Positions 22,331-45,877 of a stretch of 64,000 nucleotides of DNA are shown in pieces. The notes beneath the pieces were generated by a model. The model was not told where the DNA came from, searched no databases, and saw nothing but the letters and a program-made list of their open reading frames with translations. The stretch spans positions 2,646 through 66,645 of the forward strand of contig QEVM01000001.1 in the NCBI GenBank assembly GCA_003576805.1, read 5' to 3'. Source of the DNA: Pseudomonadota bacterium (GTDB lineage Bacteria; Myxococcota_A; UBA9160; PR03). Made by a program: the position numbers and the translations under genes. The stretch's first letter is position 1, and the number at the start of each line of letters is the position of its first letter.

Positions 22331-22385
22331 CTCCCACGGCTAGCACGTCGGGCGAGGGACGGCCTCGGCTTTCACGGCGCTCCGG

Positions 22386-23948
22386 TCATTGGATTCCGAA
22401 CCTCCGCATCTTCTTGTAGACACTGAAGTCGTCGCGGAATACGCCTATGCGGACGGAGACGACTTCGAGAACGGGTCGCTTGCCGCTAGGCGGCGGCACC
22501 TTTTGGACGCGGACGCGGATTCGGAAGTCGCGCAGGATCGCGCGCTTCTGGTCGCGCTCGAGGGCGCTCCAGGACGCGAAGACGTCGACGAGTGCGGCCA
22601 GGACTTGATCGTCGATCTCGATGTCCTCGCCTTGCCTCGCTGCGAGCGCCTCGAGGGCTGCGCGCTCGCCGTCGATCGCCTCGGCGCGCTTCTGCGTTTC
22701 GCGGAGGTCTACGAGACCCGCCACGTGAGCATCGATCAAGCGCCGCCGCTGATTCTCGAGCTCGACCATCCGCCGAGCGATCTCCGACGGCGCTTCCGAG
22801 GCTCGTGACTCGGTCTCGCGAAGGCTCTCTGCCACGAGCCGCTCGAGGACCTCCGCCGATCCCAGCCGATGCGCGAGGGCTTCGTCGATTCGGGCGTCGG
22901 CGAAGCGGATCGAGATCGTTCCTGTGGTGCAGCCCTTGGTGGGACAGTTGTACTGCGGCCGCTCCCACGATTGCCGCTGCGCGGAGGTCGTTCGCCAGAC
23001 GCCTCCGCGGTGCCAGAGGTGGCAACCACAAGCGGCGCACTCGAGGACACCGGCGTACGTCCCGTCCATCGTGTCGGGGTCGCGTCGCGGAGGGCGCTTC
23101 GGACCACGGGCGCCGACTAGCTCTTGGGCGCGCACCCAATCCGCGGCCGCGATGAGGGGCGGATCGAGCACGACGTGCTCGTAGGTGTCCTCCGGCCGGC
23201 GCGGCGACGGTCGTCCCTTTTGCCAGCACCGATCGACTCGATAGATCCCCTTGTAGAGCGGCTGGCCGAGAATGCTCCGGACCGCCCAGGACCGATTCGC
23301 CGACGACCCAGAACCGATTCCCGTTCTGCGCGCGATCTCCGCGAAGGGCAGGGTCCCCTCGCATTCGAGCCAGATGCGAAACACTTCACGAACGCGCTCG
23401 GCTTCCGGGAAGACATAGGACCAGCCCGCCTTCCGATCGAAGCGCACGCCGCGGGGCATCCCGACGGTTCCCTCGGCACGCACGCCGCGCTCGCGTCGCT
23501 TGCGCTCGCGTCCTCGCCGCGTGCGCTCGATGATGCGCCGGCGCTCTTGCCCGCTCAGCTCGCCCTGAAGCACCGACATCAGAGCGCCGGCGTCCTCGGC
23601 CGGGTCGTACACACCTCCGGCCGTGAAGAGCTGGGAACCGGTTTCGGCGAACGCATCGAGGATCGCGTAGTCGGAGAAGCGACCGCGCCGAAAGAGCCGA
23701 TCGAAGTCCGCGACTATCACCGCGCGAGCACGACCGGCTCGGAGATCGTTCAGGACGCGGGCGAAGCGCTGGTCGGCGAGCACCGCAGCGCCCGAGACGC
23801 CTTCGAGCTCGACCCACTCGATCACCTCGAGTGCGTGGGCTCGGGCGATCTGTGCGCACACTTCGCGCTGCGCCGGAAGACCTTGTCGCTCCGGGCCCGC
23901 CTGAGCCTCGCTACTCACTCTCAGGAGCGCGATTGCCCTTCTGGTCAT
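22386..23948 (-). CDS. large serine recombinase
   Basis: Resolvase catalytic domain RAIALLRVSSEAQ...ARAVIVADFDRLFRRG, recombinase domain, zinc-ribbon CAACGCH...CPTKGC, coiled-coil C-terminus. Start taken at Met18 (23948). Confidence 0.9.
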   Translation of the reverse strand: MTRRAIALLRVSSEAQAGPERQGLPAQREVCAQIARAHALEVIEWVELEGVSGAAVLADQRFARVLNDLRAGRARAVIVADFDRLFRRGRFSDYAILDAFAETGSQLFTAGGVYDPAEDAGALMSVLQGELSGQERRRIIERTRRGRERKRRERGVRAEGTVGMPRGVRFDRKAGWSYVFPEAERVREVFRIWLECEGTLPFAEIARRTGIGSGSSANRSWAVRSILGQPLYKGIYRVDRCWQKGRPSPRRPEDTYEHVVLDPPLIAAADWVRAQELVGARGPKRPPRRDPDTMDGTYAGVLECAACGCHLWHRGGVWRTTSAQRQSWERPQYNCPTKGCTTGTISIRFADARIDEALAHRLGSAEVLERLVAESLRETESRASEAPSEIARRMVELENQRRRLIDAHVAGLVDLRETQKRAEAIDGERAALEALAARQGEDIEIDDQVLAALVDVFASWSALERDQKRAILRDFRIRVRVQKVPPPSGKRPVLEVVSVRIGVFRDDFSVYKKMRRFGIQ

Positions 23949-24606
23949 CCGTGATCCCGCGCTGATGACGAACGCATCGTACCACTGCCTCGGGGTCACC
24001 GGACTCGAGCGCCCGGCGAAGCTCCTCGTCCCGTTGGCGATGGATGTTCAGCACGGTTCGAACCGCTCGTCGCACCTCGGGCTCGGGTTTCAAATTCACG
24101 CATGACTCCGGCGACAATACGCAGTGGCGTGGTCAGCCGGCGTCAGAGCAAAGTCCATGCCGCACGCTTCTCCAATCTCCCGAGCGGAACGTGCCGCTCG
24201 CCACCAATGTCAGCGTTCTTTGGTCCCCGGTCTCTAGCCAGCAGTGACCAAAGTTCGCGCTTCAGCCCCGTCGCGATGGACGACGACTCACCGCGAAGCT
24301 CCGATGGCTGCCGACCGCTCGTTTTCCTCTTCTCGTGTCGCGACTGTGCTGACCTCGGACGTCGTGCAGGTCTGCAGCGCCCTCGAGACGACCGCGCTCA
24401 CCGAGGCCGCAGGAAAGCCGCTCAATTCCTGCGCCCTTATCGGCGAATCTGCTTCTCTTGGCTGCTCTTGGCTTTCAAAAAATCATTTTAATCCGAGTGC
24501 TTAGCGCGGGTCGTGCCGGTGTAGTGGCCACGCCGTGGGCCTTCAGCCCTCGCCAGGGGAATGCCGGTTGGATCGCGTTTCGAGCCTGGCTCGTCGCCTC
24601 ACCGAG

Positions 24607-26882
24607 ATGAGCGTCCGGCGTCCGTGGCTCACGGTCGTGGTGGGGCTCGGGCTCACTGCGGTGTTGCTCACGCAGGCGGCGCGGCTCACCAGCTAGGTCG
24701 GGTACGCCGCGTACTTCGGCCCCGACGATCCCGCCGTCGAGCGGCTTTCGGATCTCTTCGAAGAGTTCGACAGCGGGCTGCACGTGCTCGTCGTGTTCGG
24801 GTGTCCAGGGAGCAATACGTGCGCGTCGGTCCGCGAGCGTGGTGCGCTCGAGTTCATCGGGCGACTGCAGCGAGATCTCGATCGGCTGCCGAACGTTCGC
24901 AAGACGCGGAGCGTCCTGAATGCGCCGATCCTTGTTGCACCGCTCGAGACGCGGACGATCGCCGAGCGCGACGACGAAGGCGCGTATGCACTGACGTCGG
25001 ACTGGGAGGCGCTCGTCGAGCGATCGCTCTCCGAGCCGTTCCTCGCGAACGTCGTGGTGTCGAAGGACGGGAAGACCGGCGGTGTCATCGTCGAGCTGCA
25101 GTCGCTCGCGAGCCAGCCCGTTCGCGAAGTCGTGCACGCCATCCTCGAACTCGTACCTCGATACGAGGAGGAACTCGGCAGCGAGATCTACGTCGCGGGT
25201 GATCCCGTCTGGACCGTTGTCTCGGACGACGACCTCGACTCGGACTCGCTGAACCTGACGGTCCTGATGTTCGTGCTCATAGCAGCGATCCTGTGGGGCT
25301 TCTTCCGCGACGTCTGGCTCACGATCCTTCCCGTCGTCGCCGTGGGTGGCCTCACGATCGCGATTCACGGCGTGTTGGCGCTCCTCGCGTTTCCCATGAC
25401 GTCGATCCTCGCGGCGCTGCCGCCGTTGCTCGTCGTCATTGCGATCACGGCTTCGATCCATCTCATCACGGCGTTCCTCAGGCACCGCGATCTTTCGCCC
25501 GCCGATGCGCTGGTTCGCGCCGCCGACGAGGTCGGCCCCGGGTGTCTCTGGGCTTCGTTCACGACCGCGGCGGGATTCGCGTCGTTCCTGGTGAGCGATC
25601 TCGCGAGCTTCCGGCAGTTCGGCCTTACCGCTGGCATGGGACTTGGGCTCGCGTTTCTGGGCACCTTCACGCTGCTGCCCGCACTGCTGTGTCTCCGGCC
25701 GCCGCGCATTCACGGCGGCGACGACATCCGACTCGGCGCGGTGCGAGACCTGCTCAACGCGGCGCTCACGGCAGTGAAGACGCGTCCGGCATTCGTGCTC
25801 GCGACGGGCGGCGTCGTACTGGTCGGGCTCGCGTGTGGGATCCCGCGCCTCTACTACGAAGTCGACTTCGGCGACCAGTCGCTCGTTCTGCGCTCCGTCC
25901 GCTTCATGGAGGAGAACTTCCGACGCCCGATGACGACCGAGCTCGTCGTAACCGTTCCGGAAGGCAAGCGGATCTACGACGAAGACACGCTGCGACTGCT
26001 GCGGCGCCTCGAGAGCTACTTCGATCACGAACCGAGCACCGGCTCGCGTGGAGCTTCCTCGACTTCCTCGCCGAGGCATACCGGACCGACCATGGCCAGA
26101 GCCCCGAGTCCTTCGAGGAACTCGTGGCGGCAGCGTCCGCCCAGATGCCGATCGTCGCCTCGCACGAGTTTCTGGAGCGAGTCGGCTTCGGACGCCCCGG
26201 ATGGAACCCGCACCTATCGCGACCGCGCGCGCGTTTCGATCCATCGCAGCTGGCTCAATGGCCAGGAGCAGATCCCGTACGTCGAGCGGCTTCGCGACTT
26301 CGTCGCCGAGGTCAACCGCGACGTGGCAGGGCAGGGCTACAAGGTCGAGTTTGCTGGCGGCCTCGAGCTCGCCGCCCTCGCCGAGCAGCGCATCCGCGAC
26401 ACGCAGTGGGGGAGCTTCGGGGGGCGTTCGGCGTCGTAGCGGTGACGCTCTGGGCACTGCTCTGGTCGTCGCCAGGGCTCGCTGCTTTGGCAACTCTTTG
26501 CAATCTGCTTCCCGTGCTTGCGCTACTTGGAGTGATGGGCTGGCTCGGCATCGCCGTCGACCCGGCGAACACGATGGTCGCGGCCGTGCTGATCGCCATC
26601 AATGACGACGACACCATCCACATGTCGCTCCGGTATCAGCGGGAGCGCCGCTCCGGCAAGAGCCGCCTCGACGCGATAACGACTGCGATCAAGACCGTGG
26701 GCGACGCGGTCGTCGTCACGAGCATCTGCCTCGCCCTCGGCTTTGCGGTCTTGATGTTCTCGAACTGGGGCGGGCTCGTGGCGTTCGGGCTCCTCGCGAG
26801 CCTAGGCATCGTCATGGCGCTTCTCGCCGTTCTGCTCCTCCTGCCGGCCGCGCTGCTCCAGCGCGAAGGAACGAGGGTGTAG
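24607..26882 (+). pseudogene. MMPL/RND-superfamily transporter, disrupted (in-frame TAG plus at least 3 frameshifts)
   Basis: MSVRRPWLTVVVGLGLTAVLL..LTS*VGYAAYFGPDDP has TAG at 24694-24696. The MMPL sequence then continues by switching between the 24784 and 25293 frames near 26045-26055, 26190-26200 and the G6 run at 26419-26424. Confidence 0.75.
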
Positions 26883-26884
26883 CC

Positions 26885-29558
26885 GTGATGAGTTGGGCAA
26901 AGGCGAGACCCTGGCTCGTCGCGGCCGTGGTGGCCTTGCCCTGGATCGTCGTCTGGCCTTCCGCCGACGCATTGCTCGATCCCGTTCGCGGCGTCGACGC
27001 TCCCATCGACAGCTCGCTCCGCGTCCCATTCGGCGCCGCCTTCCTCGCGACCGCGAACGCAGACTTTTAGACACACGATCGCGTTCTCGACGCAACACTG
27101 GTTGATGGCGATCAGGTCCTCGTGCCGAGCAGCCGGAAGGCACTCTGGGACGCACTGGACGAGTCCCCTGCGGAGTCCATGCACTTCCACGTGGCGCGAG
27201 GTCGAACGACGGCAACCGCTCACGCGAGCCGCGCTCCTCTCTCCGGATGGCAGATCATCAGCCGGAACTGGCCTCTCACCTTCCTCGGCGGCTCGTTCCT
27301 GCTCTTCGGCTTGACCATCGCGCTCGGAAGTCGGCACCCCGTCGCCTCATCTCTGTTCGGCGTGACGTGGTGCATCGGCGCGAACCTGCTCGCTCAGCTC
27401 GATCTCGTCCTTCCCGAGGATCCGGGCGTCCACGGCGTTGCTTCGCTGCGCGCGCGGCTCGGCGTGGTGTCGCTGACGCTCCTTCCGGCCGCGGTGATCC
27501 ACCTCGCCATGCGCTTCCCGGTCGTAGCGCCGCGCCTGCGGTCCTCGGCGGTCGCGGCTATGCCGTACGTCTTCTGGCTCTTTCCGGCCGGCTTCGCGCA
27601 GCGGCATCTCGGCGACGCGACGTTCCTGAACACACTCGAAAAGGTCACCGTCGGCGCGACCTTCGTCGCGGCCGGCATCCTGGCGATCGGAAGCCTCACC
27701 TCGATCCGGAACATGACGCCCATCGAGCGCGCGCGAACGCGGGCGCTGCTCTTCGGTCTCGGGCTCGGTAGCGCCGTGCCTCGTGTGCTTCGTGTCGGGC
27801 GACAAGCCGCCGGCCGAACTGCGGACGCCACTCGTGCTCTCGCTGCTCGCGTTCCCGGCTGCGATCTCGTGGGCGGTGGTGCGCTACCGCCTCCTCGATC
27901 CGCCCGCCTGGGCGCGGAGCGCGTTCCTGACGGGGCTCACGGCACTCGTCGCGCTCCTCGGTGCGAGTGGGCTGGTCGCGCTCGCGTCGTCGCTGATCGG
28001 CGAGCCTGCGGCAGCGCTCTCGGCAGAGGTGGTTCCGGTCGCGTTGACCACCGCGATCCTCTATCAGCTGCTGCACCTCGGGCTTCGGCGCAGCGCCGGG
28101 AGCCGCGTGCTTCGCGAGCGGGCGTTCGAGCACTTCCTCGAAGCGGCGAGTCGAGAGATGGCGGCAGCGCGCGATCCGAACGAGGTGCTCGACCGCATCG
28201 ACTCGTTGGTTCGCGCCCATCTCGGCGCGAGTTCGGTCCAATGCGTGACCGATCTCGCTGGCGCGCTCGATGGCACGCCACTCGTCCGTCGCGGGCTCGA
28301 CCTCTGGCTGGGCGAAGGTGCACCCGTCGATCGCATGGTGCGGTCGAGCACCCGCGCCGAGGATCCCGGCCCCGAGCTGCCCGAGATCGTCCTGCCGTTG
28401 ACGCCGCCAGATATGCCCAACGCGCTGGTCGTCCTCAGCTCGCGCAGCGACGGACTCCCCTACGACGACGAGCACGAGCGCATGCTCGCGAGCCTCCGCC
28501 ACATCGCGACCAACGCGCTGCAGGCCTCGGCGACGACCGCACACCTCGAAGCCCGGGTCGAGGAGAAGACGAGTTCGCTCGAGCGCGCGCTCGCCGACCG
28601 GCAGGCGGTGCTCCACTCCGCGCGCGCCATCTGCGAGGCTGGCGACGTCGGCGCGGTCCGCGAGACGATTCGTGAGTTCGCGGTCCTGCGTGGCCTCTCG
28701 GATGGCAACGACGCGCTCGCGCCTTCGCGGCACGAAGAGCTGCTGCCTCAGCTCGCGACACTGTCGGCCTTCGCCGACCTTGCGATTGGCCGCCTCGAAC
28801 TCCTCGCCGAGCTGAAGCGCGAAGTCGAGCAACAAGCACAGGAGATCGCCGAGATCAGCCCGCGCCGGCTCCATGCGGAGTTCGTCCGCGGCGCCGCGCA
28901 CGAGCTTCGAAAGCCCACCGAGACGGTGCGCAGCCGCGTCGAGCAGCTCGCCGCCTCGCTTCCGCCGGAACTCTCTCCGACAGTCGAGCGCATCCGCGCC
29001 GCGAGCCGGGAGATGTCGCGGCGGCTGGATCTCCTGCTCTTCCACTCCGGGCTCCGGCTCGACCTCCAGCGCATCGACCTGATCCGTATCGTCGACGACG
29101 CCGTCGCGGCGACGCGCGCGAGTGGCGCGGTCCGCGACGTTCGCGTCCACCACGAGCTGCCGCGCCTGCGGATGCTCGCGGACCCGAGCCGACTTCTCTC
29201 CGTCGTCGAGAACCTGCTCGACAACGCGGTCAAGGCGACAGAGCCGGGCCAGCGGATCTCGGTTCGCACCTCGCTCGAGCGCAATCGCAGCCACCGCGGC
29301 AACTGGGTCCGACTCGACGTGCTCGACGAAGGGCGCGGGATCTCGCCCGAGCAGCTCGATCAGATCTTCGAGCCGGGCGTCGCCTTCGAGGCGAGCGGGT
29401 TCGGGCTCGGCCTCTCCCTGTGTCGCGAGATCGTGCGCATGCACGGCGGCTCGATCGCGGTGGAGTCGCAGCGCGGATGTACGGTGTTTCGCATTCGGCT
29501 TCCGCAGTTCCGTTCGGGGGAAGGCGATGACGGCAATGGCCGCGATTCTGCTGGTTGA
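26885..29558 (+). pseudogene. membrane sensor histidine kinase, disrupted (in-frame TAG plus one frameshift)
   Basis: The 61-aa ORF (signal/TM, ...TANADF) and the ORF at 27122 share a frame, separated only by TAG at 27068-27070. The frame switches near 27770-27790 (..LFGLGLGSAVP / CFVSGDKPPAEL..). Downstream H-box AAHELRKPTE and HATPase [18 protein letters not shown] are intact. Confidence 0.7.
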
Positions 29559-30636
29559 GGACCACGAGGCGACGCGCTCGCAGCTCACGGGCGAGCTCGA
29601 GTCGTCGGGCTACCGCGTCGTCGCCGCGCGCGACGGGCGCGAAGCGTTGGAGGCACTCCGCAGCGCACCCGTCGACCTGATCCTCAGCGATTACCGCATG
29701 CAGCCGATGGACGGGCTCTCGCTGCTCCGCGCCGTGCGCAAGACGCTCGAGGTCCCTTTCGTGCTGTACAGCGCTGGCGCCGACGCCCAGGCGGTCTTCG
29801 CGGCAGGCCGCGCCGGCGCGGTGCGCTTCCTCGAGTTCCCGTTCCGCGTCGCGGACCAGCTACTCCCGACGATCGCCGACACGCTCGCGTCTCGGGGCGC
29901 ACGCGAGCGCTCCGAACGCCGCGTCGGCGCCGAGCGCTTGATCGGATCCTCGGCCGCGATGCGTCGCGTGAAGGCGACCATCCGTCGCATCGCGCCCACC
30001 GCGACGACCGTCCTGATCCACGGCGAGACCAGTACCGGGAAGGAGCTCGTCGCGCGCGCGATCCACGAGGAGAGCGGTCGCGGTGCCTTCGTCTCGGTGT
30101 CGGTGCCGGAGCTATCCGACGGTGTCATGGAGAGCGAGCTCTTCGGCCACACGCGTGGCTCGTTCACGGGAGCGGTCGCGTCGCGCCAGGGACTCTTCGA
30201 GGCCGCGAGCGGCGGCACGCTCTTCCTCGACGAGATTGGCGACACACCGCTGCCCGTCCAGGTGAAGCTCCTCCGCGCGCTCGAGACGCGCGAGGTCCGC
30301 CCCGTCGGAGGAACGACTTCCCGCCGCGTGGACGTACGCATCGTCGCCGCAACCAATCGGGACCTCGCCGAGATGTCGCGCCGAGGCGCCTTCCGCGAGG
30401 ATCTCTTCTACCGCCTCCGCGGCGCAACGATTCAGCTGCCGTCGCTGCGCGCGCGGACGCGCGTGCGAGCCGTACCGCGAGTGGATCGAGGGCTCCGCGG
30501 CCCGCGGGCGCGACGCCGTGGCGATCTGGCGCGACCGGGTCCTCCAGGTCACCGTCTCCCCGTCGTCGGGGACGATCAGGGCCCCTCCAGCGACGCCTCA
30601 CTGCGATCTCCGCAGGATCGTGAGGAACGGCGCTGA
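29527..30636 (+). pseudogene. sigma-54-dependent response regulator (NtrC family), C-terminally truncated
   Basis: Receiver (LLVEDHE...[13 protein letters not shown]), AAA+ Walker [15 protein letters not shown], Walker B LFLDEIG. Family similarity stops after [16 protein letters not shown] (about nt 30456). The lid and HTH are absent and the remaining ORF is unrelated sequence. Confidence 0.75.
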
Positions 30637-31207
30637 CGTGAACGAAGAACCTCTCCGCGGAGCCGTGGCTGTCGGTACGACCGCCGACCTTGCGCGCTCG
30701 GCGCGCCGCGAGCGCAAGGCCGACGAGGAAGATCCCGTGGGCGGGGACGCCGATCAGCCAGTGGCCGGTGCGCCAGATTGGCTCCGTCGCGGCGACGTGG
30801 CCGAAGCGGAGCTCCCAGACGAAGAAGTCCCAGGGTGCGTAGATGGGTGCGACGGCGCAGGCGACGCAGAGGAGAGTCAGGGCAAGCAGGGACGGGGCGA
30901 AGCGTCGAGTGCGGGCGTGTGTCAGCGAAGCAAGCGCCGCTCCTCCCGCGCCGATCGCGGCGAAGAGCAGCCAAGGCTGCAGCGCCATGGACGGCGCGAA
31001 GAGCGGCGGCCCGAGCGCCGGCTGATACGCGAGCTTCCACGCCGCCCACTGGGTCCCGGCCCAGAGAACCAGGACGAGGGCGCCGAGCACGCCGACGAGG
31101 GAACCGACGAAGATGCCGGTGGCGGTGTTCCGCCGGCCGGAGGAGGGGAGGCGGTAGAGGCGAGTAGCAGACACGGCGCGCTTCCCCGTGGCGGGAACGC
31201 CGGTCAC
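30608..31207 (-). pseudogene. traG: TraG/VirD4-type coupling protein, N-terminal membrane fragment only
   Basis: GTQWAAWKLAYQPALG, IYAPWDFFVWELRFG and SHGSAERF match the TraG N-terminal blocks as I recall them (ATQYFAH.F.YQPALG, YAPWSIL.W, HGSARWA). There is no Walker A (PTRSGKG) or NTPase domain. The rest of the 347-aa ORF is antisense to the regulator gene. Confidence 0.65.
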
Positions 31208-31242
31208 CCGAGGGGTGGTGAGAGTATATCGCGGTAGGGGCG

Positions 31243-31385
31243 GTCAGCGTCCGTCGGCCGCGGTCCTGCTCGTGCTCGAGGTGGTCGAGCGCTCTCGACA
31301 GGATCGCCATCTGCTGAGCAGACCTGATCCGCTGAGGAGACCTGTGATCGGGCGTGTGCACGCGGAAGGTGAGCGGACAACTGCG
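31243..31385 (-). pseudogene. remnant of the 3' end of a second, diverged relaxase gene
   Basis: Encodes ..AILSRALDHLEHEQDRGRR, versus ..LTWALDDVEHEQDRGRER* at the end of the intact relaxase. By hand alignment 31256-31292 matches 42916-42952 at 32/37 nt, plus GTCAGCG 7/7. A 1-nt insertion displaces the stop frame. Confidence 0.55.
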
Positions 31386-36463: not shown

Positions 36464-36476
36464 TCGAGGAAGGTGC

Positions 36477-36959: not shown

Positions 36960-38142
36960 AGATCGCGAAGCGCTCCCAGCGGACCTGCTCCTCCACTACG
37001 TGTGCACCCGGCGGAAGGAAGCTCAAGGCGGCGTCGAACATGCACGCGAGCTCCGTGCGAGCGAGGTTTACGCCGAGGCAGTAGTGCGGCCCATGACCGA
37101 AAATCGCGAGGTCGCGCGTATCGCGGCGGATGTCGAAGCGATCCGGGTCGGGGAAGACGGCCGGGTCGCGATGGGCTCCGAGGAAGCTCAGGAGAAGGAT
37201 CTGTCCCTTCCGAATGGTCTTGCCGCATAGTTCGAAATCGCGAATCGCGTAGCGCGGTAGCCCCAGCGATCCGAAGTCGAAGCGCAGAATCTCGTCCACC
37301 GCGTTCGGCATCAAGCGACCGTCCCCGCGCAGCAGCTCCATCTGATCAGGGTGCGCGAGGAGCGTGCGGAGGCCGTGCGTGCCGCCGATCGTCGTGGTCT
37401 CGGTGCCGGCTGCGACCAGACCCGCCACCATGAGCACGATCTCGTCGGTGCTCATCTGGTCGTTCTCGTCGTGCGTGAGCACGAGATCCGACACGAGATC
37501 TTCCTGCGGCTGCTTGCGTCGCTCGCCGGCCAGCGCCCGCACGTATTCGCAGAGTTCCGCCATCGAGTCTTCGGATCGCTTCCGCTCCTCCGCACTGAGG
37601 AACGGGCTGATTCCGCGCACGGCGTCGCGGCCGAGCTGTCGCCAGTGAAGCTCGTCGTCGCCCTTGGGCGGAACGCCCGTGATGCGACCGATGACCGTGT
37701 TGGGAATCGGCTCCGTGAACTCGTCATACAGGTCGACGACGCCGTCGCGGTCTCGGAGTGGTCGCGCGAATTCTTCGACGACGGCCCGGACCTGGCTCTC
37801 CATGCGCTTCACGGCCCGCGGCGTGAGCGCGGCCGAGACGAGGCGGCGCATGCGTGCGTGTTGATCCGGAGGCGCCGCGAACGGGCTGTTCTCGGCGATC
37901 CAGCGTGCCACGGAGCCCTCGGGAGGTGCGCTGTAGTGCTCGTACGCACGCCGGTCGTTGGTCACGTTCGGATCCGTGAAGAGCCGTCGTACGTCGTCCC
38001 AGCGCGTGATGATCCAAGCATTGAATCCGGGCAGCAGGTGAACGGGGTCCTCGTCGCGCACTCGCGCGAGTACGGCTGCCGGATTCTCGAAGTACTCGTC
38101 GGTGAGGAACGGGTCAGGCGCGAGCGCGTTCGGTGCTGCCAT
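36919..38142 (-). CDS. cytochrome P450
   Basis: AGTETT I-helix, ExxR (EILRFD), heme loop FGHGPHYCLGVNLA. ATG 38142 preceded by GGGAGG. The start lies 29 nt inside the upstream P450. Confidence 0.9.
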   Translation of the reverse strand: MAAPNALAPDPFLTDEYFENPAAVLARVRDEDPVHLLPGFNAWIITRWDDVRRLFTDPNVTNDRRAYEHYSAPPEGSVARWIAENSPFAAPPDQHARMRRLVSAALTPRAVKRMESQVRAVVEEFARPLRDRDGVVDLYDEFTEPIPNTVIGRITGVPPKGDDELHWRQLGRDAVRGISPFLSAEERKRSEDSMAELCEYVRALAGERRKQPQEDLVSDLVLTHDENDQMSTDEIVLMVAGLVAAGTETTTIGGTHGLRTLLAHPDQMELLRGDGRLMPNAVDEILRFDFGSLGLPRYAIRDFELCGKTIRKGQILLLSFLGAHRDPAVFPDPDRFDIRRDTRDLAIFGHGPHYCLGVNLARTELACMFDAALSFLPPGAHVVEEQVRWERFAIFSRLASLPTALAR

Positions 38143-39433
38143 GGGACCTCCCATTTCGAGCGGGCGTGAAGTGGATCGGGAGGCGCTTCGGGCCGCGCAG
38201 CAGGAACGAGTCGATGTAGGGCACGTTCGGCTCCGCCAGCTCGAAACCGGCCATCGCGCCGAGCAGCTCCTCGAAGGCGACGCGCGCCTCGAGCCGGGCG
38301 AGCGAGGCACCGAGGCAGAAGTGGATCCCAAAGCCGAATCCGAGATGCACGGTGTTGCTGCGCTCGATGTCGAATCGGTCGGGATCGGGGAACTGGCGCT
38401 CGTCGCGGTGCGCGGCGCCGATGCACGGCAAAACCGTCGAGTCCTTTGGGATTCGCACGCCGGCGAGTTCGGTATCGCGCGTCGCGCGTCGGAAGAGAAT
38501 CTGGATCGGGGCGTCGTAGCGGAGGATCTCTTCGACGAGTGCGGGGATTCGCTCCGGCTCTTGCTGCACCGCAGACAGCTGGGCTGCATTCCGCGACAAG
38601 GCGATCATTCCGTTGCCGATCAGGTTCGTCGTGGTCTCGTTCCCGGCGATCAGCAACAGGACGACGAACATCAGGACCTCCGTGGTAGAGAGCGCGGCCT
38701 CGCTCGCCTCGGCCGCAACGAGGGTCCCGATCAGATCGGAGCGCGGCTCGCTGCGCCTGCGTTCGATGGCCGTGCGCAGGTAGGCGTCGAGCTCGCGAAA
38801 GGCCTCGAACACGGTCTCTGGGCGGAGCCCTTCGGTCGATCCCGAGCCGCTCTGGATCAAGACGTCCGACCAGCGCTTGAAGTCTGCGCGGCGCTCGGTC
38901 TCGATCCCGAGGAGCTCTGCAATCACGGTGACGGGGAGCGGAATCGAGAAATCATGGACGAGGTCCATCTCACCCTTCTCGCGGACCGGCTCGAGACACG
39001 CGCGCGCGATCTCGCGAATACGCGGCTCAAGCGCTGCGATCCGCTTCGGTGTGAAGCCGCGGTTCACGAGACTGCGAAGCGGACCGTGGATCGGCGGGTC
39101 GGACGCGATCAGCATGCGGGACTTCAGAAATTCGCCGAGCGGGATTGGCATCTGCTGGAAGAGTTCGAGCATGCGCGCCGCATCGGCGCCTTGAAAGCCG
39201 AGCCCCGACGCCTGCGTGCCGACTCCGAGACCGCTCATCATGATCGTCATCATCGCGGTCGACGAGAACAAGTCGGGCTGCTTGAACACGCGCATCACGT
39301 CGTCGTAGCGAGTCACCATGAAGAATCCGCTCGGCTCGGACCGATACACCGGAGCCTCGCGGCGCAGTCTCTCGTAGTGCGGATAGGGATCCTTCGAGAT
39401 CTGCGGGTCAAACGGATCGATGGCGATGCTCAT
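38114..39433 (-). CDS. cytochrome P450
   Basis: AGNETTTN, EILRYD, FGFGIHFCLGASLA. Close paralogue of the next gene. Confidence 0.9.
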   Translation of the reverse strand: MSIAIDPFDPQISKDPYPHYERLRREAPVYRSEPSGFFMVTRYDDVMRVFKQPDLFSSTAMMTIMMSGLGVGTQASGLGFQGADAARMLELFQQMPIPLGEFLKSRMLIASDPPIHGPLRSLVNRGFTPKRIAALEPRIREIARACLEPVREKGEMDLVHDFSIPLPVTVIAELLGIETERRADFKRWSDVLIQSGSGSTEGLRPETVFEAFRELDAYLRTAIERRRSEPRSDLIGTLVAAEASEAALSTTEVLMFVVLLLIAGNETTTNLIGNGMIALSRNAAQLSAVQQEPERIPALVEEILRYDAPIQILFRRATRDTELAGVRIPKDSTVLPCIGAAHRDERQFPDPDRFDIERSNTVHLGFGFGIHFCLGASLARLEARVAFEELLGAMAGFELAEPNVPYIDSFLLRGPKRLPIHFTPARNGRSHGSTERARA

Positions 39434-40701
39434 GCGACACTCCGATGCGGGGCGAAGCGGATCGGAAGTGACCGCGGTCCGCGGAGGAGATTCGACTCGA
39501 TCACGTTGACCTCCTCGGCGTCGAGGCGGAAGTCGCGGCAGCGATCGAAGAGGGTCTCGAACGCAACTCGTGCTTCCAACCGAGCGAGCGCTGCACCGAG
39601 GCAGAAGTGGATGCCGTGGCCGAACGCCACGTGCTCTCGGGACTTGCGATCGATGTCGAAGCGATCCGGCTCCGGGAACTGCCGCTCGTCGCGGTTCGCA
39701 GACGCGAAGAGCACCATGAGGAAGGCGTCCTTCGGCAGCTTCGTGCCGCCCAGCTCCACCTCCTCGACCACCTTGCGCGGGATGCCCTGGATTGGCGAGT
39801 CGTAACGGAGCGCCTCTTCGAGCATCGCCGGGATTCGCGAGCGGTCGGCGGCGACACGTTCCATCACATCCGGGTGCGCGAGCATCGCTCGCATCGCGTT
39901 GCCGATCAGATTCGTCGTCGTCTCGTTGCCTGCAATCAGCAGGAGGACGATGAACGATAGAACCTCGCCGCCCGTGAGTGCGTCGCCTTCCTCGGCTTGC
40001 GTGAGGATGCTGATCAGATCGTCACGTGGGCTGCTCCTCCGCGCCGCGACAACCGACTCGATGTAGTCGGCCATTTCGTCCGCCGCAGCGGCCACCTCTG
40101 CGCGACCGAAGGCCTGTGACGTTCCGGAGAGCCCGATCACGATTGCATCGGACCAGTGCTTGAATCGCTCGCGGCGCTCGGGCTCGACACCCAGGAGCTC
40201 CGCGATCACGGTCACCGGAAACGGAATCGCGAAGTCCTTCACCAGGTCCATCTGCCCGGTGGCGACGACTGAATCCAAGCATGTCTCGGCGATCGCGCGG
40301 AGGCGGGGCGCCAGCGCAGACATGCGCCTCGGGGTGAAGCCGCGGTTCACGAGGTTACGCAGCCGCGTGTGATCCGGGGGGTCTGTCGCGATCATCATCG
40401 ACGACTGGAGAAGCCGGTGGCCCGCGAGCGCGCCCGAGTTCGGGCCGAAGCTGATGCCGCCACCTTGGGCGAGGATCTGAAGCGCTGTCGAGGAGAAGAC
40501 CTCGGGTCGATGAAGCACTGAGCAGACGTCGTCATAGCGCGCGACGGCGTAGAACGGAGCGCCAGGCAGAATCTGGTGGATCGGCGACTCGCGTCGCATC
40601 GCGGCGTAGTACGGATACGGGTCGTGCCGGACCGTTGGTAGCAACGGGTTGTAGTCACTCGCCGACACGAGGTTCTTGGACGACAGAGCGGGAATCGACA
40701 T
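39430..40701 (-). CDS. cytochrome P450
   Basis: AGNETTTN, EALRYD, FGHGIHFCLGAALA. 4-nt overlap with the downstream P450. Confidence 0.9.
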   Translation of the reverse strand: MSIPALSSKNLVSASDYNPLLPTVRHDPYPYYAAMRRESPIHQILPGAPFYAVARYDDVCSVLHRPEVFSSTALQILAQGGGISFGPNSGALAGHRLLQSSMMIATDPPDHTRLRNLVNRGFTPRRMSALAPRLRAIAETCLDSVVATGQMDLVKDFAIPFPVTVIAELLGVEPERRERFKHWSDAIVIGLSGTSQAFGRAEVAAAADEMADYIESVVAARRSSPRDDLISILTQAEEGDALTGGEVLSFIVLLLIAGNETTTNLIGNAMRAMLAHPDVMERVAADRSRIPAMLEEALRYDSPIQGIPRKVVEEVELGGTKLPKDAFLMVLFASANRDERQFPEPDRFDIDRKSREHVAFGHGIHFCLGAALARLEARVAFETLFDRCRDFRLDAEEVNVIESNLLRGPRSLPIRFAPHRSVA

Positions 40702-40719
40702 CCAGGCTTCCTCCTGGGC

Positions 40720-42030
40720 CTACGCCCTTCCACGGCTTCGGAATTCGAGATGGGCGTACTCTGCGCGCGCCTCGGCAAGCGCTCCCTCGACGCGGTCTGC
40801 AAGGGATCGCACACCCGTCCAGATCCACCGCTCCGGCGCGACCTCTTCGAGATCTCCGAGCGCCGCGAGGTCCTGCACCCATGCAGCTGCCTCGTCGTGC
40901 GCGATCACGAGACGGAACGTGCTGCCTCCGACCTTCCAGATCGGGTAGTGCGAGCGACCGCCCCACGCTAGGTCGAGAACGCGCATGGCTTCGCTCGTGT
41001 GCTCTTCGAGGACGGAGTAGATCGCGGGAATGCGCTCCGAGAAGATCTCGAGATCGCGCATCGCCATCCGCTTGGGATTTGTGAAGACGATCTCGTGGCT
41101 CGGGTACGAGATGTCCTCGTCCACGTCGAGCGCGAGCAGGCGCCGACTCGATTCGAGGTAGCGGAGCACGCCGCAGTGCTCGGGCGGCACACCGGCGAGG
41201 GAAGCGAGCGTCCCCGGTGTGACGAGTGAAGTCGTCGCCGGAAGCCACATGTCGCCCGTGATGAGATGACCGCGATCGACGCGCACGCAGAGATGACCGG
41301 GAATGTGGCCGTCGAAGCGCAGGAGCTCGATGCGGCCGTCGGCGAGCGAAACGACCTCGAGACCAGGATCGATCTCCTGGTCCACCCGGAGCGGCCCCTC
41401 GTCCATGCTGCCCCAGGGCGCACGATCGAAGTCGAGGCCCGAGTTGCGCATGAGCGCGAGGTAGTGATCGCGGATCTCGCCCGTGAGACGTTCTACATCG
41501 ACGTCGATCCCGCAGTCTCGGAAGAAGGGGATCCGAGTCCGCAGGAAGGACTCACGGCGCGCGACCAAGGGGAAAAGTTCGCTCGTGTAGCGGTGGGCAA
41601 CCGTGGTCGCGCCGCTCCCGAGCGCTTCGATGGCGGCGTGACCTCCCGCGTGATCGAAGTGCGCGTGCGTGTAGATCGCGATGATCGGTCGCTCGCCGAG
41701 ACTTCGGCCTTCCGCGCGCACGATCTCTTCGAGCGTTTCCGGAAAGATCTCGGGCGCCGTCGTCCTATAGGTCGAATCGACGACGAACAGGAAGTCGGGA
41801 AGCGAGACGATGTGGCAGGCGACCGAGAACGAGCTTGCGCCGATGGGAGTTCCGCCCTCACCAAAACGCTCCTGCAGGTAGCGCGAGGTCGGCGTGTCGA
41901 AACGGTCGAGGACCACCGCGAGGGGGCTCGGCATGCGGCCACCAGGGCCCGAGAAGGCACCCGACTCGGCCTCGATGCGATAAATGCGAAGACCGTCCCT
42001 GCTGCGTGCTGCCTCGCGCGATTGGATCAT
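40720..42030 (-). CDS. MBL-fold metallo-hydrolase with long C-terminal extension
   Basis: IYTHAHFDHAGG (HxHxDH), later GHIPGH and ..HEIVF.. ligand candidates. 436 aa. Confidence 0.8.
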   Translation of the reverse strand: MIQSREAARSRDGLRIYRIEAESGAFSGPGGRMPSPLAVVLDRFDTPTSRYLQERFGEGGTPIGASSFSVACHIVSLPDFLFVVDSTYRTTAPEIFPETLEEIVRAEGRSLGERPIIAIYTHAHFDHAGGHAAIEALGSGATTVAHRYTSELFPLVARRESFLRTRIPFFRDCGIDVDVERLTGEIRDHYLALMRNSGLDFDRAPWGSMDEGPLRVDQEIDPGLEVVSLADGRIELLRFDGHIPGHLCVRVDRGHLITGDMWLPATTSLVTPGTLASLAGVPPEHCGVLRYLESSRRLLALDVDEDISYPSHEIVFTNPKRMAMRDLEIFSERIPAIYSVLEEHTSEAMRVLDLAWGGRSHYPIWKVGGSTFRLVIAHDEAAAWVQDLAALGDLEEVAPERWIWTGVRSLADRVEGALAEARAEYAHLEFRSRGRA

Positions 42031-42665
42031 GTGGATTCATCCGGCAAGGCGACCTCAGCGGCGAGATCGGGCCACGCTTCCGGTCGCAGCACGCCGAAGA
42101 GCAGCACGCGCTTCACCTCGCGGGCTAGGCGCTCGGTGGCGCGTTCCATGGCCTCAGGAGTCTCGTGTGCGGCACGCGCGAGCAGTGGCCAGAGAATGCC
42201 GACGCTCATCAACACGTAGCCAAGCATTTCCACATCGACACCGGGCTGCGCTTTCGCGTTGCTGGTGATCCGCCGCAGCTCGCCGAGGTATTGCTCCCAG
42301 GCATCGCGGGGAAGCGGATTTGCCGAGATGAGCTGATGGAGAGTGAGTTGCGTGACTTCGGGGTGCTCGACGAAGAACCGCGCCATGTGGTCGATCCGTT
42401 CGCCGATCGGCATCGGTGCGACGAGCATGCGAGCCACGTCCTGAGCCAGGTCCGCAAACACGGCGGCGACGAGCTCGTCGCGCGTTCGGAAGTGCTGATA
42501 GGCCGTCGTCCGGTTGAGCGTCGCCCGGTGCGCCACCTCTGAGACGGTGACGGCTGCGGGGCCTCGCTCCGCCATGAGCTCGCGTGCGGTGCGCAGTAGG
42601 CGCTCGCGACTGGACCGGTAGTCACGGCGTCGGATCCGGTCGGGCAGTTGCGTCGGCTTCGGCAT
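42027..42665 (-). CDS. TetR/AcrR family transcriptional regulator
   Basis: SRERLLRTARELMAERGPAAVTVSEVAHRATLNRTTAYQHFRTRDEL HTH. 4-nt overlap with the MBL gene. Confidence 0.85.
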   Translation of the reverse strand: MPKPTQLPDRIRRRDYRSSRERLLRTARELMAERGPAAVTVSEVAHRATLNRTTAYQHFRTRDELVAAVFADLAQDVARMLVAPMPIGERIDHMARFFVEHPEVTQLTLHQLISANPLPRDAWEQYLGELRRITSNAKAQPGVDVEMLGYVLMSVGILWPLLARAAHETPEAMERATERLAREVKRVLLFGVLRPEAWPDLAAEVALPDEST

Positions 42666-42700
42666 CAGAAGCCGAGCCTATCCAATTCTCACAATTAAAG

Positions 42701-42904: not shown

Positions 42905-44860
42905 TCAGCGCTCGCGACCGCGGTCTTGCTCGTGCTCGACATCGTCGAGCGCCCAGGTGAGCGTTCGACGCTCGCGGCTTTCCTGCTCCGCGGTGACCTC
43001 GGCCCGCGCGCGGACGGCATGGCCCACCTCGAGGTCTCGGCGGTCCGTCGGGACTGCGGTCAACTCCTGCCCGGTGTCGAGTACGACGTAGCTCTTGCCG
43101 TCGTCGTCGACGGCGTAGCCGACGACGGGGCCTTGGTGGGCGCGGCCGGGCTCGGCCCTGGTCGTACTGCTCTCCTTGCCATGGATGCGCTCCAAATCAC
43201 GCAGCGTCGTCGGAACGCGCTCGCCGCGAATCATTCTTCCCTCGACCATCCGCTCCGCTCCTTTCTCGACTTCATAGGTTCTCTCGGCTCCTTCGTCGCG
43301 ACTTCGACGCAGGAGGCCCTCCCGCTCGAGCACAGGTCCGCGCGCGCGGACTGCGGCGCGCCATTGGCGGAAGAAGCCGCGGCGGTCGGGGGCCGGAGAG
43401 GGAAGGGCGCCGGTCTCTCGCACGGATCGAAGGGCATCGCGGTCGAGCAAGGTGGAGGCGGTCTCCGCGCGCTTCAAGTCGCGTAGCGGGCCATGCTCGA
43501 GGATCTCGGTCCGCATCGCGCGGTCTCCGGTGCGGGTGGCCGCGCCGCCGCGCAGTGTCACAACGGAGCCGGGCCGGAGGCGGCCCTCTCCGCGGGCCGT
43601 GACGATCTCCGTTGTCTGCGGGATCAGATGGCGACGGCCATCCGTGCCCTCGACGATCAGCAGCGGCTCGTCGCGGGACTCGTCGATCCCGCCTCCGGTC
43701 ACGCGGCCCGTGACCTCCACGCCCGCCAACATACGCGTCAGCACCACCGGCGCGTCCCGATCGGACACCAAGGTGCGCGAGCGCGCGAGGCTCTTCTGCA
43801 CGTCACCAGCGATCTGGATCTGCCGGAGCGCCGGGACAAGTTCGGGGGAGAGGTGCCAGCGTTTGGGTCCAAGCCGTTCTGCGAGGCCGATGCTTTCCAG
43901 ATACTGAAGCCTACGCAGGTCCTGCTGCCGACGCTCTTGGGCGACGGGTCGCGACGGCACCCCATCGTCGAAGGACACGGTCCCACCCGCGTCCGCTCGT
44001 CCGAGGAGCGAGCGGTCGATCTCCGTGAGCCGCGGCGCCGAGATCGCATTCTCGCGCGCTCGCCGGTACTCGTGCTCCTGCCGATGCCCGAGCGTCCGCG
44101 TCAGGAGCTCCTGACTGCGCGCCCGAATGCCCGTCCGGATGTAGTCGCGCGCGAGGAGGAGGGCCTTGCCTTCCTCGTCTACGCCGCGCACCACGATGTG
44201 TACGTGAGGGTGCGCCGTGTCGTGGTGATCGATCGCCACCCACTCGAGCCGGGTGCCAAGATCGTACTCGATCTGCGCCATCAGCTGCCGCGCGTGGCCG
44301 CTGAGATCGGCCCGCGCCCCTGCCTCGGGTGAGACGACGATCTTCCAGAGGCGCGCATCGCCGGCCTTCTGCCAAGCGTCGAGCCGCTCGGGAAGGTCGA
44401 GGTCATCGCGCTCCGCATCGAATCCCAGCCCCCGCGCGTCCTCGCGCTGTGCACCCGCGCGGCTCAGGTAACGGCCCTGTGCCCGCCAGGCTCCGCGTCC
44501 CTTATTCCGCGCGAACGACATCTTCACGAGGCTGCGCTGTTGGAGCGGTGACGACGTGGTCGTGAACGCGATGGGGCCTCGAGCGCGCCGGTGTCCGCGC
44601 TGATGCGCGCCGAGCTCCGCGGACAGGCGCTGCAGTGCCCGAGCTGACCGCCCTCCGCTCTCGCGCGCGATCCGCGAAGGTCGCAGACGCATCGAGGGAG
44701 CGTCCCGATCGGAGGTCGAGCGACTACCACTTCGTTGCGCGAGCGCCGGCGACGAGAGTTCGGGGCCACGCTTGTGCTCTCTGTGGTGGCCATGATCAAC
44801 CGCCTGGCCGGCATCCGATCGCGCCGAGCCAGGCTTCGCGGTCGGCGACCGCGGGCTCAC
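42905..44860 (-). CDS. conjugative relaxase (VirD2/MobP-like relaxase domain with large C-terminal extension)
   Basis: RLWKIVVSPE...WVAIDHHDTAHPHVHIVVRGVD histidine-triad motif. N-terminal MRLRPSRIARE block typical of ICE relaxases of this type. The ATG at 44860 overlaps the traF stop by 4 nt (alternative start 44692). Confidence 0.8.
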   Translation of the reverse strand: MSPRSPTAKPGSARSDAGQAVDHGHHREHKRGPELSSPALAQRSGSRSTSDRDAPSMRLRPSRIARESGGRSARALQRLSAELGAHQRGHRRARGPIAFTTTSSPLQQRSLVKMSFARNKGRGAWRAQGRYLSRAGAQREDARGLGFDAERDDLDLPERLDAWQKAGDARLWKIVVSPEAGARADLSGHARQLMAQIEYDLGTRLEWVAIDHHDTAHPHVHIVVRGVDEEGKALLLARDYIRTGIRARSQELLTRTLGHRQEHEYRRARENAISAPRLTEIDRSLLGRADAGGTVSFDDGVPSRPVAQERRQQDLRRLQYLESIGLAERLGPKRWHLSPELVPALRQIQIAGDVQKSLARSRTLVSDRDAPVVLTRMLAGVEVTGRVTGGGIDESRDEPLLIVEGTDGRRHLIPQTTEIVTARGEGRLRPGSVVTLRGGAATRTGDRAMRTEILEHGPLRDLKRAETASTLLDRDALRSVRETGALPSPAPDRRGFFRQWRAAVRARGPVLEREGLLRRSRDEGAERTYEVEKGAERMVEGRMIRGERVPTTLRDLERIHGKESSTTRAEPGRAHQGPVVGYAVDDDGKSYVVLDTGQELTAVPTDRRDLEVGHAVRARAEVTAEQESRERRTLTWALDDVEHEQDRGRER

Positions 44861-45411
44861 TTGGGATCACCTGCCGATCGCGTCATCAGCGGGCGAGCGA
44901 TCGCGACGATGCTCGCGGCGGAGACGGGCCCGAAGTAGCGGCTATCCCAGCTGCGCTCGCGACGAATGCCGAGAAGCCAGACCTCACCGTCGCAGACGAG
45001 GCGGCGCCCGAAGGGGACGTGCTCGAGCGGGCGGCCGAGGCTGTCCGTCGAGTGACGTCGCGAGCGATCGACGACTCGACCGTTGACGGCGAGGAAGTCG
45101 CGCTTCAGCTCGACGTCGTCGCCGGCGACTGCGATCACCTGCTTGAGCACCGGGCTCGTTCCACTCGAGCACGAGCCGGCCGACAGGTATCCGCGGGCGA
45201 ATCCGAGAGCTGCGACCCAGTCCGGCAGGCAAGCCGCGACCAAGTCGTTCCGCTCGATGCCGGCCGCGCGTTGGATCGAGTAGACGCCCAGAGGTGCCGA
45301 GGTCGTCCAGTTGATGCGAACCGGCAGCGCGGTAGCGAGCCAGATCGTGGTCGAAGCGGCCGCGATCGCGGGGATCGCGGCGGCGCGGCGCTTTGCAGGT
45401 CCGACCGACAC
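44857..45411 (-). CDS. traF: S26-family signal peptidase, conjugal TraF type
   Basis: N-terminal TM, NWTTSAPLGVY, VKQVIAVAGDDV, SWDSRYFGPV motifs. Confidence 0.8.
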   Translation of the reverse strand: MSVGPAKRRAAAIPAIAAASTTIWLATALPVRINWTTSAPLGVYSIQRAAGIERNDLVAACLPDWVAALGFARGYLSAGSCSSGTSPVLKQVIAVAGDDVELKRDFLAVNGRVVDRSRRHSTDSLGRPLEHVPFGRRLVCDGEVWLLGIRRERSWDSRYFGPVSAASIVAIARPLMTRSAGDPK

Positions 45412-45418
45412 TCGCGAC

Positions 45419-45649
45419 TCATTGCGGCCGCGGTGGCGTCGCTTCGGACGTGGACCGCCGGCGACCGCCTTCGATGCACGCCTCGAGATCCTTGACGTCG
45501 TACCGCACCGAGTGCCCGAGCTTCACGAAGCGCGGACCGCTGCCCTGCAGACGCCACTTCTGGAGCGTCCGCATGCTCACCCCGAGCAGCTCCGAGGCAT
45601 CGCGCACCGTGACGAGTCGAGACACGGGCCGCTGCTTCCGCAAGGCCAT
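45419..45649 (-). CDS. helix-turn-helix DNA-binding protein (AlpA/excisionase-like)
   Basis: LVTVRDASELLGVSMRTLQKWRLQGSGPRFVKLGHSVRYDVKDLEACI. Confidence 0.75.
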   Translation of the reverse strand: MALRKQRPVSRLVTVRDASELLGVSMRTLQKWRLQGSGPRFVKLGHSVRYDVKDLEACIEGGRRRSTSEATPPRPQ

Positions 45650-45877
45650 GCCGATCGGGCGAGGCGCCGAACGGCGGTGATCGCGCTAGCCGGTGCGCAC
45701 GAGGGGTCTGGCGGCGCGGTGCTGGCGGGCACTGGCGGCGGGTCCACTGCCAGCGGCACCGGCGGGCAACCCGCCGGGTTGAGCCGCTCCGGGATTGCCG
45801 GAGCCTGGAGTCATTGACCCCGATGGGGAAATCACGGAGGTCGCAGCGAGCCATCGATCCCGCGACAGCCTTGGCCT

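Follow-up and report, generated by a model that had tools for sequence, protein, structure and literature searches.

A probable decayed conjugative element with a large serine recombinase at the 3' end of a sigma-54 activator gene

What kind of mobile element keeps a large serine recombinase (LSR) and a set of conjugative DNA-processing genes and yet has no mating pore, and could it still move? The question is raised by an island in the genome of an organism deposited as Pseudomonadota bacterium (GTDB lineage Bacteria; Myxococcota_A; UBA9160; PR03; assembly GCA_003576805.1). The stretch analysed, here called the window, comprises 64,000 nucleotides of contig QEVM01000001.1 (positions 2,646 to 66,645 of the forward strand), and coordinates below are positions within it. 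The island is very probably a decayed integrative and conjugative element (ICE), built from a transfer backbone of the ICEMlSymR7A/Tn4371 type with a swapped-in LSR, its pore having been lost by an internal deletion. It runs from 22414/22415 to 45882/45883, about 23,468 bp, with both ends mapped against empty sites, and so the ends at 22378 and 45816 proposed by a first-pass annotation of the same DNA were off by about 36 bp on the left and 65 bp on the right. Composition sets the island apart as well, its G+C content over about 22.4-45.9 kb being 64-71% against ~75% in the flanks and its G+C at third codon positions (GC3) 0.74-0.85 against 0.88-0.99 outside. Genes were chosen by GC3 and then scanned with Pfam and NCBIfam, and tRNA and Rfam scans of the whole window were both empty.

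Integration at the end of a sigma-54 activator gene

An LSR lies at the left end, as the first-pass annotation had said, and is encoded by an intact gene of 520 codons (22386-23948, minus strand) with Resolvase and Recombinase domains (PF00239 at 69.2 bits and PF07508 at 25.2 bits, both exceeding the Pfam cut-offs). Its open reading frame (ORF) spans 22386-23999 on the minus strand with the true start at the Met at 23948, and the protein equals in length its homologues P0122 (86% identical) and P0123 (76%). Exactly the same 520 residues are encoded on an independent Logan contig, which is 100% identical to the window over 12386-30234 (17.8 kb). An RVSS motif lies near the N-terminus; the zinc-ribbon family PF13408 is recorded in several homologues and gives no score for the window LSR, and Cys clusters (CAACGC...CPTKGC) are visible in the translation. 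The top NCBIfam match is XisF, far under its cut-off, and Pfam and NCBIfam scans of the island returned no Phage_integrase domain.

The right end falls in a host gene for a sigma-54 activator, or bacterial enhancer binding protein (bEBP; 45878-47272, minus strand), which carries the attB and has a Sigma54_activat domain (1.7e-70) and a C-terminal HTH_8 domain. Orthologues with flank synteny occur in L095 and L003, where L numbers denote loci fetched from other genomes and metagenomes. The activators of ICE-free genomes end, each before a stop, in ...REGLYKKMRRFGIE (L095; tail YKKMRRFGIE), ...LYKKMQKYAIT (L096) and ...LHKKLKRLGVE (L099), and those of the window and L003 end in ...REGLYK. The LSR frame of the window ends in ...SVYKKMRRFGIQ, also given as ...DDFSVYKKMRRFGIQ (last residues YKKMRRFGIQ), and those of related LSRs in ...YKKMRRFRIS (L006) and ...YKKMKRFGIE (L007). 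Comparison of these tails with the intact orthologues places the displaced host 3' end, KMRRFGIQ and its stop, as the last 8 codons of the LSR ORF (22386-22412, minus strand). The insertion thus falls within the final codons of the activator gene, whose 27 displaced nucleotides now close the LSR ORF. Eight residues of the HTH_8 tail have passed from the activator to the integrase; the host activator probably still works despite this.

The insertion has left a 12-bp core, TCTACAAGnAGA, at both ends, at 22409-22420 and 45877-45888. On the minus strand the attL core (TCTACAAGAAGA; mapped against the empty sites L095, L096 and L099) reads GTGTCTAC-AA-GAAGATGCGGAGG and the attR core (TCTACAAGTAGA) reads GGGCTCTAC-AA-GTAGAGGCCAAGGCTGTCGCGG, with 11 of the 12 core base pairs common to the two. 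The motif TCTACAAGNAGA matches the window without mismatch at these two places only; the LSR gene contains a further site, at 23246-23257, that departs from it at one position, which makes three matches where 0.06 would be expected by chance. A blind search for terminal repeats by local alignment of the two island ends scored no higher than shuffled sequences did, since 12 bp with a single mismatch are too few for statistical detection; the core came to light through comparison with the empty sites. Crossover probably occurred at the AA dinucleotide (22414-22415 in attL, 45882-45883 in attR), on either side of which attR has 9-nt arms that are 89% complementary; the element-side arm is kept in L003, and the TAG stop at 45878-45880 is supplied by the element.

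Joining the outer halves of the two sites reconstructs attB as a repaired sigma-54 3' end (...GAGGGGCTCTACAAGAAGATGCGGAGGTTCGG...) that matches the intact gene end of L095 in 56 of 69 nucleotides and 20 of 22 amino acids. Joining the inner halves gives an attP of TCTAC-AA-GTAGA, a perfect palindrome across the LSR stop codon (junction ...GTGTCTACAAGTAGAGGCC..., also given as ...TTCAGTGTCTACAAGTAGAGGCCAAGGCTGTCGCGG...). Short sites symmetrical about a central dinucleotide, with no long direct repeats, accord with a serine integrase. On this reading the LSR recombined the attP, spanning its own stop codon, with an attB in the activator's last codons (...CTCTAC-AA-GAAGATG...), and the exchange of 3' ends left the host gene stopping 8 codons early at the element's TAG, while the LSR frame gained KMRRFGIQ; once excised, the LSR is predicted to be a 512-aa protein ending in ...SVYK. 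Such a bEBP-tail att site may be previously undescribed, as literature searches yielded no description of a sigma-54 activator attB, nor of such ICEs in Myxococcota, which is weak negative evidence. Because the att pair can be read from the sequence, integrase and sites could be tried together as a new pairing for engineering the genomes of high-GC bacteria.

Empty sites were found by scanning genomes with the flanking sigma-54 activator and by examining metagenome-assembled genomes (MAGs) that share the window's right-flank synteny, which extends over nine genes in L095 and fewer in L096 and L099. All three have no ICE genes downstream of the sigma-54 gene, and in L095 and L096 Pfam finds ordinary metabolic genes there in DNA of uniform G+C. 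A recombinase match downstream of the L095 gene was spurious, Pfam showing housekeeping genes. Among genes common to both relatives, host proteins are 70-87% identical to those of the window in the ICE-free L095 and 61-81% in the ICE-bearing L003, which makes L095 the nearer relation of the window's host, and ICE proteins are 81-87% identical between the window and L003, L006 or L009. Such a patchy distribution, alongside an intact empty site, speaks for horizontal acquisition or for precise loss and against an ancient fixed island. The same content everywhere with no empty site, the outcome that the first-pass annotation had named as adverse to its view, is not what is seen; content differs, and L095, L096 and L099 are empty. 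Since the region downstream of the activator varies between genomes, the genes beyond the LSR differ in the window, L006 and L007.

Transfer genes kept and lost

Three genes of conjugative DNA processing are kept at the right end. The first encodes a 76-aa protein of the HTH_17 or excisionase family (45419-45649, minus strand; HTH_17 3.8e-10; TIGR01764 excisionase 6.8e-4, under cut-off) and occupies the rdfS position upstream of traF-rlxS, which by analogy makes it a candidate for the recombination directionality factor of the LSR. Next comes an intact traF for the S26 pilin-processing peptidase (44857-45411, minus strand; TIGR02771 TraF_Ti, 131.9 bits against a cut-off of 100.25), and then an intact gene for an RlxS-like MOBP relaxase with Relaxase and DUF3363 domains (42905-44860, minus strand; 651 aa in its long form, 595 aa from the Met at 44692). 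The relaxase histidine motif HHDTAHPHVH is visible in the translation, and homologues of the same length are 81-89% identical. Its best NCBIfam match is NF041267 RlxS (4.8e-70, model positions 18-409 of 654), and as the score is 237 bits against a cut-off of 850 the protein is a distant relative and not an equivalog. The gap between the HTH gene and traF is 7 nt and the traF stop overlaps the long-form relaxase start (GTGA), likewise in L092; open frames, domain matches, gap and overlap together bear out the earlier description of this operon as intact. TraF has no substrate, because trbC is gone, and is probably kept only via its operon position.

What is missing is the coupling protein, but for a stump, and the whole pore. 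The stump, traG', comprises codons 1-173 of a 710-aa protein (30656-31174, minus strand). By BLASTP it is 84% identical to the TraG of L004 (E 2e-90) and 65% identical to its L005 counterpart, and the match breaks off exactly after HGSA. The truncation reported by the first-pass annotation is thus real, although the same BLASTP comparisons put it at 173 codons and not at 185-200. The whole ATPase domain is lacking, and the stump sits 11.7 kb from the relaxase, beyond the cargo block. A 212-aa ORF after the relaxase was tried as a traG fragment and is a TetR regulator by Pfam; tblastn of the stump against plasmids gave no match. For the pore itself, nine Trb proteins of close relatives (TrbB, C, D, E, J, L, F, G and I) used as tblastn queries found no trb or virB gene in the window, and Pfam found none in the main ORFs or in the six-frame gaps 23990-24800, 26400-27800 and 30400-31600, in agreement with what had been read from the letters alone.

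The junction at which these genes would have been lost can be placed closely. Upstream of the stump lies a truncated response regulator and sigma-54 AAA+ activator (29527-30463, plus strand), 87% identical to a 442-aa regulator of L009 over its codons 1-311 and without the AAA lid and C-terminal region. Homology to the regulators of L006 and L009 ends at 30463, the left deletion breakpoint, and TraG homology resumes at 30656, the right one. The 192 bp between (30464-30655) have no convincing match and are unlike the response regulator, traG or any fetched locus. A single internal deletion with this 192-bp filler would have joined regulator codon ~311 to traG codon 173, and judged by relatives would have removed the regulator 3' end, TP_0789-like and DUF3419 genes, the entire trb operon, the trb-traG interval and the 3' three-quarters of traG. 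We infer that this one event produced the present state. With traG broken off at codon 173 and joined to a truncated cargo gene, loss of the pore is secondary.

Related elements

Metagenomes and Myxococcota MAGs supply the nearest relaxases, at 65-89% identity. In L004, L005 and L092 the order is HTH_17 (not in every case), TraF, relaxase, variable cargo, a 315-336 aa protein, full-length TraG and a 154-179 aa protein; NCBIfam gives no annotation for the 315-336 aa and 161-179 aa neighbours of traG. L003 shares host synteny with window 45857-57947; next come its orthologue of the sigma-54 activator, TraF and a relaxase of 81% identity. A related element carrying other cargo thus occupies this chromosomal site in a different organism.

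The other end of the element is represented by relatives of the LSR. Homologues in L006 and L009 (86%) and in L007 and L010 (76%) sit at the edge of a low-GC island, and composition switches at the LSR stop codon. In L009 and L010 the LSR is followed by genes for an MMPL protein (776 aa), a kinase (~900 aa), a regulator (442 aa), a TP_0789-like protein and DUF3419. Beyond DUF3419, in the same low-GC island, is a complete set of trbB, C, D (VirB3), E (VirB4), J-like, L, F (VirB8), G (CagX) and I. The presence of a trb operon in LSR-bearing relatives means that the element of this LSR carries a mating pore. The MMPL, kinase and regulator genes beside the window LSR, which have counterparts in the relatives, likewise belong to the element and are pseudogenes here. 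L009 and L003 share metagenome 3300045912, and L003 ends at its contig start; the shared sample, matching divergence and complementary content suggest that the two are opposite ends of one element of >55 kb.

A trb operon in relatives with the same LSR (76-86%), together with a single attB recovered from the outer ends, supports the earlier proposal that self-transmissibility was lost and DNA processing kept. Set beside a functional ICE, the island has a recombinase with attL and attR and an intact relaxase, and it has neither a complete coupling protein nor a type IV secretion system (T4SS). It is incapable of self-transfer. Its gene content is that of an integrative and mobilisable element (IME), with an integrase and a relaxase and no T4SS of its own, a state reached by deletion. 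With att sites, LSR, rdfS-like gene, traF and relaxase intact, excision as a ~23.5-kb circle and mobilisation by a related ICE supplying TraG and Trb would be possible, and both are plausible from the reading frames.

Quite where trb stands relative to traG depends on the relatives consulted. The first-pass annotation took it as established that the relaxase gene is followed by traG and then by a trb operon, and this holds for the wider family (L014, L016, L017, L021, L022 and L037, brought out by a metagenome scan with TraG), where traF, relaxase, traG and a CopG-like gene precede trbB onward, for an annotated Bradyrhizobium plasmid with the same traF-relaxase-traG-CopG-like-trbB order, and for the elements described in PMC2789088. 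In the closest relatives trb is present and not adjacent to traG, and in the window an 11-kb cargo block, a region known to vary in this ICE type, separates the stump from the relaxase. In L014, L016, L017, L021, L022, L031 and L066 (TraG 56-63% identical) trbF and trbG were seen upstream of traF and trbB-L downstream of traG; either the trb operon is split around the DNA-processing genes in L014-type loci or the loci are circular plasmids.

Sister elements that share the HTH-traF-relaxase-traG backbone lie beside tRNA-Thr(CGT) in L004 (579-654), L005 (4225-4300) and L012 (1524-1599). These presumably use a different integrase, none being seen within the fetched flanks. With the sisters at tRNA-Thr and the window element at a sigma-54 gene, the integration module has been exchanged within the backbone family, so that one backbone is found with tRNA-Thr sites in the sisters and a serine integrase in the window. 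Two features of these relatives can be recorded in addition. A second, partial relaxase copy (residues ~388-487, 71% identical) lies in L003 at 17035-17334, 5 kb downstream of the full relaxase. The cargo of L004 looks defence-like, with DUF4062, ThiF and an E2-like gene and an OLD-TOPRIM and UvrD pair resembling Gabija (3776-6980 and 11810-13608).

Alternative explanations

Several observations weigh against a decayed ICE as described. No single contig holds the LSR, trb genes, traG and relaxase together. The closest relatives have ArdC and RadC genes on the opposite strand after traG and not trbB; their trb operon appears to converge on traG rather than to follow it, a layout pieced together from separate loci and not directly seen. 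The HTH_17 gene is absent from L003, with a 235-aa ORF in its place, and so the rdfS-like protein may not be the directionality factor of the LSR. The intergenic regions offered only short, unconvincing inverted repeats and no identifiable oriT. The lesions of the cargo pseudogenes rest on assemblies that possibly derive from the same reads, the identity of the Logan assembly over 17.8 kb making it unlikely that they are errors of this window assembly alone.

The strongest alternative concerns present activity only and is compatible with an origin as an ICE remnant: the island would now be a fixed, immobile passenger whose open frames are merely not yet mutated. Its chances seem a little short of even. 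Three adjacent cargo pseudogenes, and a deletion that shows relaxed selection on transfer, speak for it, as do the 8-aa tail of uncertain consequence on the LSR and the points just made on HTH_17 in L003 and on oriT. Set against this, the ~3.8 kb of LSR, relaxase, traF and HTH genes are free of lesions where ~5 kb of nearby cargo has at least four, and the att cores and their flanking arms are intact and conserved with relatives.

It is quite unlikely that two unrelated elements lay side by side, an LSR-bounded island with MMPL, kinase and regulator genes and a mobilisable element with relaxase and traG, and that one deletion ran into both. That the LSR block and the relaxase block are never on one contig in the relatives fits such a history, and the sister backbones of L004, L005 and L012 at tRNA-Thr show that a relaxase-traG backbone can exist without this LSR. 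However the outer ends rebuild one attB with no third full att core between them, and the relaxase end of L003 lies at the same sigma-54 attB that the LSR targets. The halves also complement each other: the LSR-side islands of relatives have a T4SS but neither relaxase nor coupling protein inside 20 kb, and no T4SS occurs in the relaxase-side loci. An IME by design that never had a pore and always depended on a helper is very improbable, for although integrase and relaxase without a T4SS are the definition of an IME and trb genes are absent from the 3-7 kb that follow traG in L004, L005 and L092, the traG cut and its fusion to a cut cargo gene speak for secondary loss, and relatives with the same LSR and cargo have the full trb operon.

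A possible serine recombinase family for activator tails

The LSR can be set among its own relatives, for which the sample was 17 homologues at 43-86% identity, with one more distant at 30%. Twelve of the 17 close with the activator-type tail YKKM[KR]R[LFH]GI or with something near to it, and a further 3 end in ...YK. Those ending in ...YK before the stop were considered as circular attP forms joined to rdfS-traF-rlxS, and L175 and L177 were checked; in neither is the integrase linked with a relaxase. In L175, an integrated copy, AAG is changed to TAG. The LSR of L177 (45% identical) lies at the end of a phage-like gene set (L177 1-11530, with PDDEXK, SMC-like ATPase, DUF2303 and HerA-like genes) and stops at an attP-like palindrome, GTCTAC-AA-GTAGAT, without an activator tail.

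From these tails the LSR family appears to be dedicated to the 3' ends of bEBP genes and to be used by more than one kind of mobile element. A wider proposal, put forward tentatively and rather more apt to fail than to hold, is that of an undescribed LSR clade with a single target, the conserved last codons (LYKKMxRxGI) of bEBP genes. The attP would lie across the integrase stop, tails would be swapped on integration and swapped back on excision, and the whole would serve as an exchangeable integration cassette for different mobile elements of Myxococcota-like bacteria, trb-type ICEs here and phage-like ones as in L177. If true, the tail swap might tie integrase activity or regulator function to the integration state.

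Comparison with known systems

The backbone is a familiar one, in which the known elements have a MOBP1 RlxS relaxase and an IncP/Ti-like trb T4SS. The rdfS-traF-rlxS operon is highly conserved over ICEMlSymR7A-type ICEs and plasmids (PMC8627217), and in the Tn4371 family the order runs from traF and an RlxS-like relaxase through variable cargo to traR, traG and trbBCDEJLFGI (PMC2789088). The window and its relatives share with these the excisionase-type HTH-traF-RlxS/DUF3363 operon, the cargo between relaxase and traG, a TraG as coupling protein and, in the relatives, trbBCDEJLFGI. Differences are that the window has an LSR where the known systems have a tyrosine IntS or Int(Tn4371), that its target is a protein-coding 3' end in place of a tRNA gene or the 8-bp Tn4371 site, and that repA, parA and DUF2840 are absent between HTH and traF. 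The RlxS equivalog cut-off is missed, trb is apparently inverted relative to traG in the closest relatives, and the hosts are Myxococcota-like MAGs as opposed to Alpha- and Betaproteobacteria. Conjugative elements are, to our knowledge, poorly documented in Myxococcota-like bacteria. The rdfS-traF-rlxS/trb backbone, known from Alpha- and Betaproteobacteria, circulates also in these high-GC organisms.

Tn5397 of Firmicutes, with TndX, has an LSR at the end of a conjugative element and inserts site-specifically. The same arrangement of an LSR at one end and site-specific insertion in a gene is shared by the window with serine-integrase ICEs and IMEs, the streptococcal ICEs of Firmicutes and those of Mesorhizobium (PMC4701971, PMC8627217). 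The Firmicutes elements differ in having other relaxase and T4SS types. On the present backbone one ICE and five IMEs with a serine recombinase are recorded in Mesorhizobium (PMC8627217), so the pairing that the first-pass annotation found unexpected is unusual but not unprecedented. PMC8627217 gives these Mesorhizobium cases as counts.

With SPbeta (SprA), skin (SpoIVCA) and the fdxN element (XisF) the island shares an LSR-bounded element inside a host coding sequence, where excision would restore the gene. It differs in displacing the last 8 codons only, in its conjugative origin and in showing no sign of developmentally programmed excision. From decayed ICEs and ICE-derived islands, which have lost pore genes by internal deletion and kept integrase and relaxase and so are operationally IMEs, nothing separates it conceptually; the case is unusually well delimited, with both breakpoints and both att sites mapped. 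As a decayed ICE the island is ordinary, and its value lies in its full delimitation by att sites, breakpoints, an empty site and T4SS-bearing relatives.

Cargo and flanking genes

The cargo is of two kinds. Next to the LSR are the pseudogenes, which begin with an MMPL/RND transporter (24565-26879, plus strand), 72-77% identical to the 776-aa MMPL protein of L009; its frame is interrupted by a stop near 24694 and shifted near 26421-26466. A histidine kinase follows (26930-29558, plus strand; HATPase_c), 67-71% identical to the 902-aa kinase of L009, with a stop near 27068 and a frameshift near 27762-27787, and the third is the truncated regulator. The stops and frameshifts of the first two would have arisen after the deletion.

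Beyond the traG stump lie genes on the plus strand (31580-36959) for a TetR regulator, an HlyD-type membrane fusion protein, an AcrB-type RND pump and a 4HBT thioesterase (Pfam TetR_N, HlyD_D23, ACR_tran at 2.5e-278, and 4HBT), and on the minus strand (36919-42665) three cytochrome P450 genes with those for an MBL-fold hydrolase and a TetR regulator (Pfam p450 three times, Lactamase_B, TetR_N). The 11-kb cargo made up of these genes, two of them for TetR regulators, looks intact, and may explain why the remnant has been retained. Where the window has efflux and P450 genes, L003 has instead a defence-like gene for an 848-aa MBL-fold protein with a weak Avs1a match (cargo 11938-14484).

On the host side, the left flank begins with an SDR gene (21416-22330, minus strand). 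The right side varies, as ~5.9 kb at 47272-53155 have no counterpart at that position in L003; they include genes for a PEP/pyruvate-utilising enzyme (48009-50540) and an FG-GAP repeat protein (51378-53135), and L095 matches the FG-GAP gene only. A 373-aa ORF at 47284-48405 (plus strand) has coding-like GC3 and no family match. It runs opposite to, and overlaps, an upstream extension of the activator's reading frame, and is probably a spurious artefact of high G+C. Further to the left, a solitary gene for a 566-aa OLD-family ATPase/TOPRIM nuclease (5907-7607, minus strand; AAA_21, AAA_15 and OLD-like_TOPRIM) lies within an islet of 58-62% G+C (6001-8000) amid host DNA of 75% G+C, and looks like a separate acquisition of a defence type.

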